A DNA stretch of 48,627 nt from Anaerolineales bacterium UBA3071 (GTDB lineage: Bacteria > Chloroflexota > Anaerolineae > UBA3071). The position numbers were made by a program, and so were the translations under genes. The notes under the pieces were generated by a model. The model saw nothing but the letters and a program-made list of their open reading frames with translations. It was not told the origin of the DNA and made no database searches. Location of the stretch: assembly GCA_002366755.1 (NCBI GenBank), contig DFBV01000018.1, forward strand, positions 15,508-64,134, read 5' to 3'. Below are positions 24,584 through 29,186 of this stretch, piece by piece. The stretch's first letter is position 1. Each line of letters opens with the position of its first letter.

Positions 24584-25636
24584 TCACACTGCCGCACCAG
24601 TTTCGACGATCGGTTCCCAACTGTGAACTTGGCCTGCAACCAGCAGGTCAGCGATGGCATCCGTGATGGGCAGACCGGTGAGTAGTTCAATCCAGTACCA
24701 CAGTCCTACTGGATTGATCTCCAGAAATACATAACGGCTATCGGGGGTCAGCACCATATCAATGGCCCCGTAAACCAGACCGAAGCTTCTGGTCAACTCG
24801 ATGCACAGTTGAGCGATGGGCAGCAGCAGTTGATGCACGCGGTGAGGCGTATTGTCGAAGTCATAGTGGCGCCAGTCGTGCCTGGTGCGTTCTGAGGCCT
24901 GGGAATGAATCTCGGCGGCGAAGACCCGATTACCGACCACGGTGACTCGAAGCTCAATCTCCTTCGGAACGTACTCCTGAAACAGATTGGCGGCGTAGAC
25001 TACTGAATGAAGGTGAGCCAAATCAGCCTCTTCGACCGGGGTAGTATAGATACCGCCATATCTGGATCCAGGCGGAATCATGCCTCGTTCTAGCTTCTCT
25101 TCACTGACAAAAGGGGCATAAAGGGTCTTGTAGATAACATTGCCTCCGCATTCTTCGTAAAAAGCCTTCACTGCAGTCGGATCGTTGGTGACCAACGTCC
25201 GGGGAACCTCAAGGCCCAACGCCGATGCTCGTTGGAGTTGGACCAGCTTCCGCTCCCCAAGCCGCATTTTGTCAGGGTGGTTGATCCAAAGAATGTGGTC
25301 AAGGTGCAAGATCCCTGCCATGGCCGCCTTGGACTCGGCCTTAGCAAACCGGGCGGCCATGGGCGAGAGCGCAGGATTCACCTCCACTGGATCCGGTCGT
25401 CCCAACCAGGCGCTGTGAATCTCCTGCAAGTCAAGCCGGCGGTGGCTCAAGTCCAAGTCAATGTAGCTATGCCATTTGCCATCGTGATTACTGAAGTACA
25501 GGCGCGAACGTAGCGGAAAATCCGCCGGGTTGAACCGAATGGGACGTGCATTGCGTCGCTCCAACGCCAGGATGATCTTATTGGCATGAAGGTCCCTCTC
25601 GTTGGTGAGAATCAGTACGGTAGGGGCAGATGACAT
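24584..25636 (-). CDS. ATP-grasp ribosomal peptide maturase (MdnC/MvdD graspetide-ligase type)
   Basis: N-terminal VLILTNERDLHA...IRFNPADFP, KL.QLQ.A..LGLEVPRTLVTNDP, DWRHYD, FLEINPVGLWYWIE..TGLPI..AIADLL are all hallmarks I associate with microviridin-type ligases. Confidence 0.8.
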   Translation of the reverse strand: MSSAPTVLILTNERDLHANKIILALERRNARPIRFNPADFPLRSRLYFSNHDGKWHSYIDLDLSHRRLDLQEIHSAWLGRPDPVEVNPALSPMAARFAKAESKAAMAGILHLDHILWINHPDKMRLGERKLVQLQRASALGLEVPRTLVTNDPTAVKAFYEECGGNVIYKTLYAPFVSEEKLERGMIPPGSRYGGIYTTPVEEADLAHLHSVVYAANLFQEYVPKEIELRVTVVGNRVFAAEIHSQASERTRHDWRHYDFDNTPHRVHQLLLPIAQLCIELTRSFGLVYGAIDMVLTPDSRYVFLEINPVGLWYWIELLTGLPITDAIADLLVAGQVHSWEPIVETGAAV

Positions 25637-25657
25637 GTCTCTTTCCTCACTGAAATC

Positions 25658-25692
25658 GGAGGGAGACAGCCCCCATAAGGCTGTCTCCCTCC
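25658..25692 (-). terminator. 13-bp hairpin between precursor and maturase genes (attenuator-type)
   Basis: GGAGGGAGACAGC-loop-GCTGTCTCCCTCC, followed on the minus strand by GATTTCAGTG. Confidence 0.55.
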
Positions 25693-25759
25693 TGCATACA
25701 ACCTTTGACTAATTCAAGGTCGTCGCCGTATGGCATGCTCACTCAGGCTGGACTTCTCC

Positions 25760-26104
25760 TCAGTCGCAATAATAGTCATCCTCGCAGTCCCACTGCCAAG
25801 GTGGCCCGTGGCCAGTGAGATACCGATGGCATGTCTTCTGGTAAGTGCAGCCAAAGATGGGCGTGCCATTGCGGTTCACGAAGAGCTGTCGGTCGGGGTC
25901 GTAGTGGCCATCAAGAACCAACGGCTCTGCCTCACTTGTCTGAGCGAACAGCATGCCGAAGGGGACTTCTTCCCCATTCCAATTCAATCGGGTGCAGTTG
26001 CTCTCAGTTACCAGCACAGATGTTCTAGAAAAAGTGCCTTCTACTGCTGGATTTCGCGTAGATTCTCCGCACGAATCTGCCCAAAATCCGGCAAGACAGT
26101 GCAT
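25760..26104 (-). CDS. Candidate RiPP precursor peptide ending ...GCTYQKTCHRYLTGHGPPWQWDCEDDYYCD
   Basis: Only ORF directly upstream of and co-oriented with the ATP-grasp gene. C-terminus is rich in T/K and D/E, with 4 Cys. Start uncertain (ATG 26104 or internal ATG 25954). Confidence 0.55.
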   Translation of the reverse strand: MHCLAGFWADSCGESTRNPAVEGTFSRTSVLVTESNCTRLNWNGEEVPFGMLFAQTSEAEPLVLDGHYDPDRQLFVNRNGTPIFGCTYQKTCHRYLTGHGPPWQWDCEDDYYCD

Positions 26105-26386
26105 TTTGCTCCGGACACTTGCGAGAATTCACCCGAAAAGCCATGGCAGCTGGGGTGAATTCCTAGCAGGTAACCAGGAGCATCTGCACCCAATTCAATC
26201 GGCTATACATCGTTTTCCTCCTTCGTGATAGGTTGAGTAGTACTCACGCTGACCAACGAAGAACTTGGTACTCCAGATTGCCGCTTCGATCACCCCCTTT
26301 CTAGATGCTTGTACTAGAACTACCCAATTTGCCTGCCACCGACTATTGAGAGTTTGAACGAGTCGGCCAGGCGGACGATGGGACGG

Positions 26387-29080
26387 TCATTCATCGCCCC
26401 ACATCTGATAGGCCGGGGCTACCTGCCTCGCGCAGGTCAGGGCCGTTTGACGAGGATCAGCTTCAACATCAGCACCATCGAAACACGCCAGATAGGCTGC
26501 CGCCTTCTCCTGCGCCGCTGTCAGGACGCTCTCTGTCTCTTCCCCTTGGGCTGCAGCGTCCACGGCTTGATAGAACCAATCGCTGGGAACCCATGTGCGG
26601 AATACATCTCTCAGACTGTTCACATGTATTGGGTTTTCAGGAGGGCTAAATTGATCGAGCGTGTGCAGAATCGCTGCCTGACGATCCTCGCCGACTCTGA
26701 TCCTGTAAGCATCAGACATAGCCACCTGGCGTCGTGCTGGTGTTACATAACCCCAAGCAGGCACGTTCTCATTGGAGAGAGGAATGAAGCGTTCGCTCAA
26801 ATAGGTGATCCAGGTCCAGCATCCCTGGATTTCCTCGGGAGTAGCCTGGCTGGAGATGAAGTAGGCCGTCCCGTAACCGAAGAAACCAGGGGAGCCCTGC
26901 TGTCCCGCCGGGAACGCTGTGTAGCCGATGTCGAAGGTCGGCCTTTCGTTCGGTGGAAATGTGATGTTGCTTTCCCACATGGCTGCACGCTCGCTCAGAA
27001 CCAGTTGCTCTGCTTCTTGCATCTCCTCGTAGCTAAACAGGCTCAAGCTGTACTGAGGTTTGATGCCATGCACTCGATGAAGGTCAACGTACCATTGTAC
27101 GGCGGCCACGCCCTGGGGATCGGTGAAACGAGGCTGAGGCTTATCGCCTGGCTCCCATGCCTCTGCGCCGTGCCATCTCATGATGCTGCCTAAAATCGTC
27201 CCTTCGTTTCGGGCTACGTAGGCATAGCGCTCGTCAGCCCCGTTTTGTTCTGTCAGTGAGAGGCTGAATTGGAGAAATTCGTCCCAATCCCAGTCCAACG
27301 GGGGATAGGGCTGTCCAAGGCCATCGAATAGATCTCGGTTGTAGGCAATTAAGTACACATAGACCCAGGCAGGAAGACCGAGGACTCGACCATCACGAAA
27401 CAAGGGCTGGCGAGATACTTCGAAAAAGTCCTCTGGAGAAAGATTGGGATCACTATCAATCAGCGGCGTCAGATCCAAGAGTACTTGTCGATCAACCATG
27501 TCTATGTGCCAGCTTCCCTCGAAGCAGGGGGCCCGGCGGGCTATGGACTCGTGTTGCGGCCAACGGAAGACGGTTTGTGATGGCGCGTGGAGTTCCACAT
27601 TGACGACGATCTCGGGATGTTCCTGTAGAAAATCCTCGGCCAGTAGCAAGTAGGGTTCCACGTCCTCGCTAACCAGAAAATCAATCTCGATCCCTCCTCC
27701 CGCCAGCGTTGGCCCCGGCTCAGGCTCTCGGACGACGACGGGCTGAACATTGAGGTTGACCTGTTGCTTAACCGCCGCGGCAAGCTGGTCCATGACCCGT
27801 GCCTGAGCTTCGGCCAATGCCGCTTCTACAGGCTCCTGCTCGACGAGGACGGCCTTCAATACCGCGTCCAACCCCTGCCGAACAGGACGGGCCAGACTGG
27901 CATCGCCCAAGCGATCGTCGAGGGGAGGGCTGAAGGCACTTACATTGTCGAACACCCAGCGGAAAGCGGCAGCCACGTCGGGGTGCAGTCGTTCCCAGGC
28001 ATCACTGGCCTTGGCAACAGAGCGGCGCGGCGGCAAGTTGTTGGGACTGTAAAGCACGCCGAGAGGAGGAACATCCTGATAGCTGAGCCAGGAGAGCCAG
28101 CGCCACGCTTCCTGGGGATGCTGGGTGCCGCCGCTGATCATGTAGCCTTTATACTCGATGTAACGGTTCGCCTCGGACGATTGCGGATAGGGCACAAAGC
28201 CGAGATCACGCGAGGAGAACTCGAGGCGATCCATGTCACTCGACAACCCGCCCCACATGGCGACCTTGCGAGCATCAATCAGGTTGCGCTCTTCCTGCCA
28301 GCGAGAACTAAAGCTCAGGCCTTCCAAAACTGGCGCCACCTGATGGACGAGGAATAAGTTCGCATACCACTCTAGAGCGGCAACCATTTGGCTATCGGTC
28401 AGATTGACGCGGGGTGGCACATCCATCTCCAGGATGTCTCCCGCCTCGGCCAGCAACCAGTACCTGGTGTGGCGCTGCTGAGGCAGGAAACCATAGCGCC
28501 GATCGCTCGGGCTATCGGCTGAAACGTAGGTGAGACGCTGAGCCGCCTGCAAGAACTCGTCCTTGGTCCATCCTGGCCGAGGGTAGGGCACGTTAGCCGC
28601 ATCCAGGATCTCCTTGTCATACAAGATGCCCCAAAGGTAGAGAGGGCCAGGGAGCCGGACGATGCGGCCTGTTGCATCTGTGGTCAGCGCGCCGGGGAAG
28701 AAATCATCCTGGTTGAAGCCACGATCGGAGTCGATGAACAGCTTCAAGTCGAGGTAATAGTCCTGCCCCTGGTACCGGGCCGGGATTTGCTGGTACACCG
28801 TGTCCGCTAGCTGTGCAATCTGACGGGGGTAGTCGTCTGGCCACTGCGATCGGGGTCCAAGTTCATTGGTCAAGGAAACGATCTGGATGGAGATACCTGG
28901 GTTCTCCTCCTCAAACTGCTTGGCAAGTTCCAGATAAGCAACCTGTTCGCGGTCTTCGACTGCGAACGTAACAACGGTGGGCTCCAGGTTGTCGAGATCG
29001 TGTTGGGGAGCTGGGCTAGAGGTACAACCCACCACTAGCAGGGTGAGGATCAAGAGTGAGCACGCAAGTCTTGTCTTCAT
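26387..29080 (-). CDS. Double solute-binding-protein lipoprotein (two tandem family-1 SBP domains), paralog 1
   Basis: Lipobox LLVVGC after MKTRLACSLLILT (AAGGAG SD). Two SBP_bac_1/8-like halves. Conserved C-terminal Cys pair. Confidence 0.8.
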   Translation of the reverse strand: MKTRLACSLLILTLLVVGCTSSPAPQHDLDNLEPTVVTFAVEDREQVAYLELAKQFEEENPGISIQIVSLTNELGPRSQWPDDYPRQIAQLADTVYQQIPARYQGQDYYLDLKLFIDSDRGFNQDDFFPGALTTDATGRIVRLPGPLYLWGILYDKEILDAANVPYPRPGWTKDEFLQAAQRLTYVSADSPSDRRYGFLPQQRHTRYWLLAEAGDILEMDVPPRVNLTDSQMVAALEWYANLFLVHQVAPVLEGLSFSSRWQEERNLIDARKVAMWGGLSSDMDRLEFSSRDLGFVPYPQSSEANRYIEYKGYMISGGTQHPQEAWRWLSWLSYQDVPPLGVLYSPNNLPPRRSVAKASDAWERLHPDVAAAFRWVFDNVSAFSPPLDDRLGDASLARPVRQGLDAVLKAVLVEQEPVEAALAEAQARVMDQLAAAVKQQVNLNVQPVVVREPEPGPTLAGGGIEIDFLVSEDVEPYLLLAEDFLQEHPEIVVNVELHAPSQTVFRWPQHESIARRAPCFEGSWHIDMVDRQVLLDLTPLIDSDPNLSPEDFFEVSRQPLFRDGRVLGLPAWVYVYLIAYNRDLFDGLGQPYPPLDWDWDEFLQFSLSLTEQNGADERYAYVARNEGTILGSIMRWHGAEAWEPGDKPQPRFTDPQGVAAVQWYVDLHRVHGIKPQYSLSLFSYEEMQEAEQLVLSERAAMWESNITFPPNERPTFDIGYTAFPAGQQGSPGFFGYGTAYFISSQATPEEIQGCWTWITYLSERFIPLSNENVPAWGYVTPARRQVAMSDAYRIRVGEDRQAAILHTLDQFSPPENPIHVNSLRDVFRTWVPSDWFYQAVDAAAQGEETESVLTAAQEKAAAYLACFDGADVEADPRQTALTCARQVAPAYQMWGDE

Positions 29081-29099
29081 GATTGCTCCTTGCGACAAA

Positions 29100-29186
29100 C
29101 TATCGGGAGAAGGTTTCGTTGAGGGTGTAACCCTGGCCATCGGGCGAGCCGTGCCGGTTGTAGCGGCCCTTGAAGTAGGTGAGCAT
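29100..29186 (-). CDS. Possible 28-aa peptide MLTYFKGRYNRHGSPDGQGYTLNETFSR
   Basis: GAGGAAGGG SD 5 nt before the ATG. Occupies the same position (just 5' of an SBP gene) as the other small peptide genes. Could instead be a degraded relic. Confidence 0.25.
   Translation of the reverse strand: MLTYFKGRYNRHGSPDGQGYTLNETFSR

Follow-up and report, generated by a model that had tools for sequence, protein, structure and literature searches.

The small gene that precedes an ATP-grasp gene in the 48.6-kb stretch of DNA analysed here (the window) is very probably a graspetide precursor gene that was split near its 5′ end when a 202-nt non-autonomous MITE, derived from an ISKra4-family insertion sequence (IS), inserted there. 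The insertion, its boundaries, its family and the empty sites at orthologous loci are read directly from the DNA. In the ancestral gene that we propose, a Shine-Dalgarno (SD) sequence and ATG 26210 would have opened MYSRLNWNGEEVPFGMLFAQ...DCEDDYYCD, a product of 79 aa consisting of a leader of ~50 residues with a PFG motif and a core of ~28 residues, in which the downstream ATP-grasp enzyme would join Thr and Asp residues into omega-ester rings. The element would then have inserted behind codon 7, in an AT-rich quasi-palindromic target of the preferred type, duplicating the 9 nt GATTGAATT. Ribosomes recruited by the strong SD would now make a 15-residue peptide that stops inside the element. 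The precursor, intact from Arg4 on, would have lost its own SD and start codon and would lie behind a very stable MITE hairpin, so that any residual synthesis would have to begin at ATG 26104, GTG 26017 or TTG 25987.

The 5′ end of the precursor gene

All features described here lie on the minus strand. The longest open frame of the gene encodes 114 aa (26104..25760) and ends in ...NGTPIFGCTYQKTCHRYLTGHGPPWQWDCEDDYYCD, with NWNGEEVPFGMLFAQTSE also present inside it. The gene caller used an in-frame GTG at 26017 as the start, and a record look-up for the resulting 85-aa product, P0006, returned no entry. Further upstream, the SD sequence GAAGGAGG (26224..26217) lies 6 nt 5′ of ATG 26210, which opens a 15-codon ORF, MYSRLNWVQMLLVTC (26210..26163). 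The 13-mer CCGATTGAATTGG occurs exactly twice in the window, at 26202..26190 and at 25991..25979, a spacing of 211 nt, and a perfect 10-bp hairpin, GAATTCACCC / GGGTGAATTC (26162..26153 / 26134..26125), follows the short ORF. The sequence features listed in a preliminary description of this region were all present on checking. A scan of positions 25500-26500 for promoter and terminator consensus sequences found zero sites.

When 211 nt were deleted in silico (the DNA between the 13-mers plus one copy of the repeat), ATG 26210 came into frame with the long ORF. The fused product is MYSRLNWNGEEVPFGMLFAQTSEAEPLVLDGHYDPDRQLFVNRNGTPIFGCTYQKTCHRYLTGHGPPWQWDCEDDYYCD, a protein of 79 aa that reads MYSRLNWNGEEVPFG...YYCD. 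The alignment of the window DNA with three related loci (L007, L008 and L009) showed one clean gap of ~211 nt in all three relatives, flanked on one side by a conserved upstream region with the SD and ATG and on the other by conserved coding sequence. These relatives carry the uninterrupted site, (C/T)CGACTCAATTGG or its equivalent, which is the empty site. The AAGGAG and ATG are kept at the original SD position in L007, L008, L009 and L061, and the homologues start with MS(S/N)RLNWNGEEVPFG (MSNRLNW, MSSRLNW or MSSRLFDW) straight after a strong SD. Furthermore, the N-termini of the homologues P0007, P0008 and P0009 agree residue for residue with the fused form. Because the syntenic loci lack the 211 nt, the extra DNA is an insertion in the lineage of the window.

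The 211 extra bases consist of the 202-nt element and a 9-nt target-site duplication. The original start and codons 1-7 (MYSRLNW) occupy 26192..26210, as indicated by the starts of the homologues, and in the alignment the insertion falls at precisely this point. The last 9 nt of this segment (26200..26192) are the left copy of the duplication, and the right copy (25981..25989) re-creates codons 4-7 (RLNW); the final GG of codon 7 is now represented by the first two bases of the MITE. A target duplication of 13 nt was considered and rejected, as the complete relatives of the element all show 9 nt beside GGG...CCC ends. The 13-nt identity results from the 9-nt duplication together with terminal GG/CC of the element that equal the flanking CC/GG. 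Thus, the repetition of the 13-mer is not coincidental and represents the duplication at the junctions of a transposable element. The suggestion that this repeat might be a duplication or frameshift scar was accurate in that it is a duplication and does shift the frame, and its origin in a MITE insertion had gone unrecognised. The ambiguous 5′ end of the gene is explained by this insertion after codon 7, which separates the gene from its own SD.

On this reading the annotation would be corrected: the true precursor would be the 79-aa form from ATG 26210, the 85-aa and 114-aa forms would be wrong, and any expression of the cluster should use the uninterrupted form of the precursor.

The inserted element and its relatives

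The MITE, GGGTGCAG...CTGCACCC, spans 202 nt (26191..25990), is absent from the orthologous loci and has termini in common with its relatives. It starts with GGGTGCAGATGCTCCTGGTTACC and ends with GGTAACTGAGAGCAACTGCACCC, which are inverted and imperfect; the terminal inverted repeats are ~26 nt long, match at 21 of 26 positions when compared by eye and end in ...CCC. Within the element lie the 10-bp hairpin (26162..26125), the TAG that stops the short ORF (26165..26163) and both the ATG at 26104 and the GTG at 26017 that are in frame with the precursor. The 202 nt have no transposase coding capacity. As RNA, the element is predicted to fold into one long hairpin (-90 kcal/mol, z = -5.8), and folding of this kind is typical of MITEs. 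An Rfam scan of the insert at E <= 1 gave only sub-threshold noise of the snoRNA type, so that the insert does not correspond to any known riboswitch, intron or leader.

BLAST searches for copies of the insert (198/202 nt) found none in its own metagenome-assembled genome (MAG), among four genomes from the order or among 401 from the phylum, and returned chance matches of 20-30 nt only. A mismatch-tolerant scan of its own genome for the termini detected only the two ends of this copy, which is therefore single in the MAG (74% complete). The tblastn search of the same 74%-complete MAG for a matching transposase gave, as its best result, only a 22%-identity hit on contig C162. Because of the single copy and the lack of a matching transposase in this MAG, the mobility of the element is judged from its relatives, to whose ~200-nt copies its interior is only weakly similar.

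Such relatives were found in several searches. A scan for the terminal pattern in one genome per species identified contigs from two uncultured Anaerolineales MAGs, with one match at a contig end, and a scan of metagenomes for the right terminus identified six contigs, in which elements 201-203 nt long and bounded by these termini lie at no fewer than five different sites. Within the class, the terminus (at most 2 mismatches) was present in 12 of 401 sampled genomes and in zero with a reversed-pattern control. These copies often lie ~100 nt from a contig end, and single genomes hold up to 16 of them (16, 8, 5 and 3). The genome G685 holds 8 copies of the terminal pattern, mostly of a 161-nt form, and five of its elements have perfect 9-nt flanking duplications.

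Elements that share these termini in other Anaerolineae genomes range from 161 to 203 nt, and there are also copies of at least 1.5 kb. In the long copies, the second terminus is absent within 1.5 kb, and an ORF of at least 489 aa ends ~52 nt before the terminus. This 489-aa ORF scores 210.9 bits on the NF033572 model of ISKra4-family transposases (cut-off 205). The right terminus, GGTAA..GAGAGCAACTGCACCC, also closes these transposase-bearing copies of at least 1.5 kb. Loci L030-L059, from G652, G685, G595, G542 and others of the class, contain ISKra4-type IS as well as 161-nt and ~200-nt MITEs.

The 35 distinct insertion sites that we collected give the target consensus WWWTSAWWT, in which position 4 is T in 30/35, position 5 is C or G in 31/35 and position 6 is A in 29/35; the DNA holding these sites is 58% G+C. 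The site in the window fits the consensus. The prokaryotic Mutator-like (p-MULT) transposons, which include ISKra4 (p-MULT 4), have inverted repeats of 18-39 bp with a terminal C and duplications of 8-9 bp, and Chloroflexi are one of the phyla in which they occur (Guérillot et al. 2014, PMC3942029). The window element resembles this family in its inverted repeats of ~26 nt ending in C and its 9-nt duplication (PMC3942029), and in having termini that also flank copies encoding the NF033572 transposase. It differs in its size of 202 nt without a transposase, its diverged interior and its single copy in the genome. Some members of the ISKra4 family show promoter-proximal targeting, from which the preference for WWWTSAWWT differs. 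These data describe ISKra4-derived MITEs of Anaerolineae as a family that has a clear target motif of 9 nt. The disruption of a small gene by a transposon is in itself ordinary, and both the precursor and the element are of known kinds.

Two individual copies deserve mention. At L024:2085-2287 and at L028, which represent the same site in two samples, a 203-nt copy lies 15 codons after an AGGAGG-ATG; because this is a putative gene start, insertions of this MITE family near the 5′ ends of genes may not be rare. The copy at L021:2984-3184 has no recognisable 9-nt duplication (ATTTGAAAA versus TAATCATTT) and could be old or the product of recombination between two copies.

The MAG is fragmented (289 contigs), and repeats of this MITE family often break contigs, which raises the question of whether the duplication-flanked 211-nt segment is an assembly artefact. 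We regard this as extremely unlikely. A chimeric join would not yield a complete 202-nt element with both inverted termini, nor a perfect 9-nt duplication at a site that matches the consensus, nor an excision that restores the frame precisely.

The same data bear on an alternative raised in the preliminary description, in which the 15-codon ORF and the hairpins would be an evolved uORF- or attenuator-type control of precursor translation. The short ORF is served by a strong SD, and in the predicted fold ribosomes translating it would open the left arm of the MITE stem, leaving unpaired the right arm beside TTG 25987 and GTG 26017. However, the ORF consists of the seven original codons of the gene and eight codons of the transposon, the 211 nt occur in no orthologous locus, the structure belongs to a MITE family whose copies occupy many unrelated sites, and no conservation indicates selection. 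Such control is therefore very unlikely. Similarly slim is the chance that the MITE has since been co-opted as a production switch, either because translation of the remnant ORF opens the stem and permits conditional initiation at the in-frame starts further downstream, or because precise excision between the duplicated 9-13 nt restores the original gene. If the excision version were true, production of a secreted cross-linked peptide could be switched on and off reversibly within the population.

The peptide family

A search of 5.8 billion proteins with the 79-aa form detected, in addition to the gene call from the window itself, three relatives of 77-80 aa: P0007 (80 aa, MSNRLNWNGEEVPFGMLFAQ...), P0008 (77 aa, MSSRLNWNGEEVPFGMLFAQ..., at L008) and P0009 (78 aa, MSSRLFDWNREEIPFGMSFAE..., at L009, L011 and L012). 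Only two further members, P0010 and P0014, came from a full HMMER scan of 1.84 billion representatives. The remaining HMMER hits were large repeat proteins (WD40-like LEGH repeats and an EEVPFGM repeat protein), which we judged to be spurious. A word-index profile search added no family members, and the precursor was not found in genomes of the same genus (83-88% complete). The true start of P0010, read from its contig, is the SD-ATG MSDRKIPFGMRFAQ; P0014 has the N-terminus MTNQLDWDCDCTPFGMRFAQ (start MTNQLDWDCDCTPFG). The contigs of both stop just past the peptide, and the maturase region falls outside them. These results define a rare family of Chloroflexota graspetide precursors with six members found.

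The 77-80-aa relatives share a conserved leader, NWNGEEVPFGMLFAQ...DGHYDPDRQLFVNxNGTPIFGG, that is followed by a hypervariable, Thr/Asp-rich C-terminus. Across the family, the conserved blocks are PFGM-x-FA(Q/E), then (D/E)G(H/Q)YD(P/H)(D/E)(R/Q)Q(L/I)F and, in most members, PxFGG, after which comes a variable tail of 25-35 residues. The sequence PFGM(L/R/S)F varies little or not at all among the 6 members. In the window, the leader corresponds to residues 4-50 of the uninterrupted form (25850..25990), is conserved across the six members and holds DGHYDPDRQLF; the PFG recognition motif within it lies at 25963..25955. The putative core, CTYQKTCHRYLTGHGPPWQWDCEDDYYCD, with the stop codon (25760..25849) is the hypervariable C-terminus, in which the Thr/Asp positions are retained.

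The four close members all have T52, D71, D75 and D79, and Thr is found at or beside positions 56 and 62. This pattern makes T52, T56 and T62 candidate ester donors and D71, D75 and D79 candidate acceptors, and suggests up to three Thr-Asp esters. Four homologues have 4, 4, 2 and 0 Cys residues. Because Cys is not conserved, the Cys-rich character of the C-terminus that had been pointed out is a property of this core only and does not extend to the family.

The PxFGG sequence precedes the variable tail in four of five homologues (P0014 is the one without it). The window peptide has FGC, through a change of GGC to TGC at codon 51 (25847-25849, minus strand). PxFGG could be a leader/core boundary of the double-glycine type; a Pfam search for a C39 peptidase domain in the adjoining ABC exporter gave no match.

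The maturase and comparison with known systems

The gene downstream of the precursor encodes an intact ATP-grasp peptide maturase of 350 aa (24584..25636, minus strand), and 123 nt separate the precursor stop at 25760 from the start of this gene at 25636. The protein matches PF21068, the MvdD pre-ATP-grasp domain, with 44 bits (cut-off 27). Among NCBIfam families it scores highest on TIGR04187, the ATP-grasp ribosomal peptide maturases of the SAV_5884 type, with 269.4 bits, below the 350-bit cut-off, and the nearest solved structures are MdnB (5ig8, 1.4e-47) and MdnC (5ig9, 2.5e-44). The MAG contains a single ATP-grasp gene of this kind and a single peptide gene of this kind. Genes for PF21068 ATP-grasp proteins lie directly after P0008 (L008) and P0009 (L009, L011 and L012). 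The reading of the small gene as a graspetide precursor, which had been proposed from the DNA alone, is supported both by the adjoining MdnB/MdnC-like ATP-grasp and by these homologous small ORFs before orthologous maturases. We looked specifically for such ORFs beside orthologous maturases, they were found, and the reading stands.

The closest characterised counterpart is in Thermobifida fusca. The precursor Tfu_1807 of this species has 89 aa and contains RPFGMRY and YDPDQQ (Makarova et al. 2022 supplement, PMC8939145). ThfA, the precursor of fuscimiditide, has a 67-aa leader and a 22-aa core (PMC13003496), so that length and species match for Tfu_1807 to be ThfA. The identity between Tfu_1807/ThfA and the window peptide is 33% over 64 aa. 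[quoted passage not shown] The two systems have in common a small precursor directly before the ATP-grasp gene, a leader with (R/V)PFGM and YDPDxQ and a Thr/Asp-rich C-terminal core. On the other hand, the window system misses the curated cut-offs (19 versus 25 bits for the precursor, 269 versus 350 bits for the maturase), its leader has ~50 aa compared to 67 aa in ThfA, its host belongs to Chloroflexota and not Actinomycetota, and its neighbours are genes for a double-SBP lipoprotein, an ABC exporter and a PurA-like protein. All four close members match TIGR04186 (GRASP_targ, putative ATP-grasp-modified RiPP) weakly over residues 13-48, with 18.1-19.2 bits and E ~1e-3; because these scores are below the cut-off of 25, the curated rule places the peptide outside the family, as a distant relative. 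A search for a PIMT-type methyltransferase (PF01135) gave no match on contig C77, the only strong match being on C70, and the core has no Asp-Gly site. Without such a methyltransferase on the contig and an Asp-Gly in the core, the peptide is not a graspimiditide.

We also compared the cluster with the microviridin system, MdnA with MdnB and MdnC. The ATP-grasp is closest to the structures of MdnB and MdnC, and in the leader a proline precedes hydrophobic residues, in agreement with the general leader motif Phhx(1,2)h (PMC8939145). However, the peptide contains neither PFFARFL nor a core of the TxKYPSD type, and there is one ATP-grasp gene, not two. Given the absence of these motifs and scores on the MvdC/MvdD equivalogs far under their cut-offs (TIGR04184 219, cut-off 475; TIGR04185 210, cut-off 425), we rejected a microviridin identity. 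The leader motif that had been likened to PFFARFL is real, and its better match is the RPFG/PFGM of precursors of the ThfA/TIGR04186 type (PMC13003496). Overall, the leader of the family points to the ThfA/TIGR04186 type, and the enzyme is most like MdnB/MdnC.

Translation after the insertion

We compared the possible starts by the calculated energy of SD:anti-SD pairing and by the probability that the region around the start is unpaired. The original start, ATG 26210, has values of -11.7 kcal/mol and 0.61. The preliminary description had found no SD for ATG 26104; in fact, GGAG is present at 26112..26109, 4 nt upstream, which gives -5.8 kcal/mol, with an unpaired probability of 0.28. For GTG 26017, the values are approximate, being computed one base upstream of the true start (~-1.5 kcal/mol and ~0.25), and TTG 25987 has -2.7 kcal/mol and 0.10. 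The value for the ATP-grasp gene is -6.5 kcal/mol. Because the 211 bases shift the frame, ribosomes loaded at the strong SD would make a 15-residue peptide and stop at the TAG in the MITE. Since codons 4-7 are re-created by the duplication, nothing of the precursor is missing from Arg4 onwards. A further in-frame start, ATG 25954, lies 3′ of the PFG motif, so that a peptide started there would be without the recognition sequence. Starts at ATG 26104, GTG 26017 and TTG 25987 all keep PFG, and their product should still be a modifiable substrate.

These properties leave some room for a gene that is still functional, with the 114-aa form made from ATG 26104 (or a shorter one from GTG 26017 or TTG 25987), the MITE serving as an N-terminal extension and the ATP-grasp modifying the product. 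The pairing energy at ATG 26104 is near that of the ATP-grasp gene, the frame is open throughout from 26104 to 25760 with no decay of the downstream ORF, the whole conserved leader from Arg4 is kept through the target duplication, the related ThfB accepts altered leaders if RPFG is kept (PMC13003496), and the rest of the operon is intact. However, the region of ATG 26104 is predicted to be mostly paired in the -90 kcal/mol hairpin, the SD spacing of 4 nt is short, and the open frame could simply reflect a recent insertion. Indeed, the lack of any mismatch in the target duplication and the integrity of the downstream genes point to a recent event. We consider a functional gene possible and clearly the less likely outcome. 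We favour the view of a gene cut off from its own start signals, whose precursor output in this genome is probably lost or strongly reduced, as judged from the predicted initiation signals.

The surrounding operon

Downstream (3′) of the precursor, the genes on the same strand encode, in order, the ATP-grasp enzyme, the ABC exporter, a PurA-like protein and a HAD/kinase/nucleotidyltransferase fusion. The main value of the present analysis is the correct reading of this larger and unusual operon, which includes the PurA-like and kinase/nucleotidyltransferase genes and for which this particular genome may fail to produce the substrate peptide.

Between the precursor stop and the ATP-grasp start, a stem-loop with perfect 14-nt arms, GGAGGGAGACAGCC / GGCTGTCTCCCTCC, spans 25658..25692 (minus strand). 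Loci L007, L008 and L009 have this hairpin in the corresponding position, where it shows compensatory changes and lacks a T-run downstream. The 14-bp hairpin may stabilise the mRNA or act as an attenuator, and thereby set the ratio of precursor to enzyme.

Upstream of the precursor, a 917-aa double-SBP protein is encoded. The order of genes for the double-SBP lipoprotein, the precursor, the ATP-grasp and the ABC exporter recurs in other metagenomic contigs, and L007 has the upstream SBP gene in common with the window. The double-SBP gene (~900 aa; 26387-29140 in the window) is syntenic in L007, L009, L010 and L013, and because of this synteny the SBP protein may be functionally tied to the peptide cluster. 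In L009 and L010, a response-regulator gene precedes the double-SBP gene.
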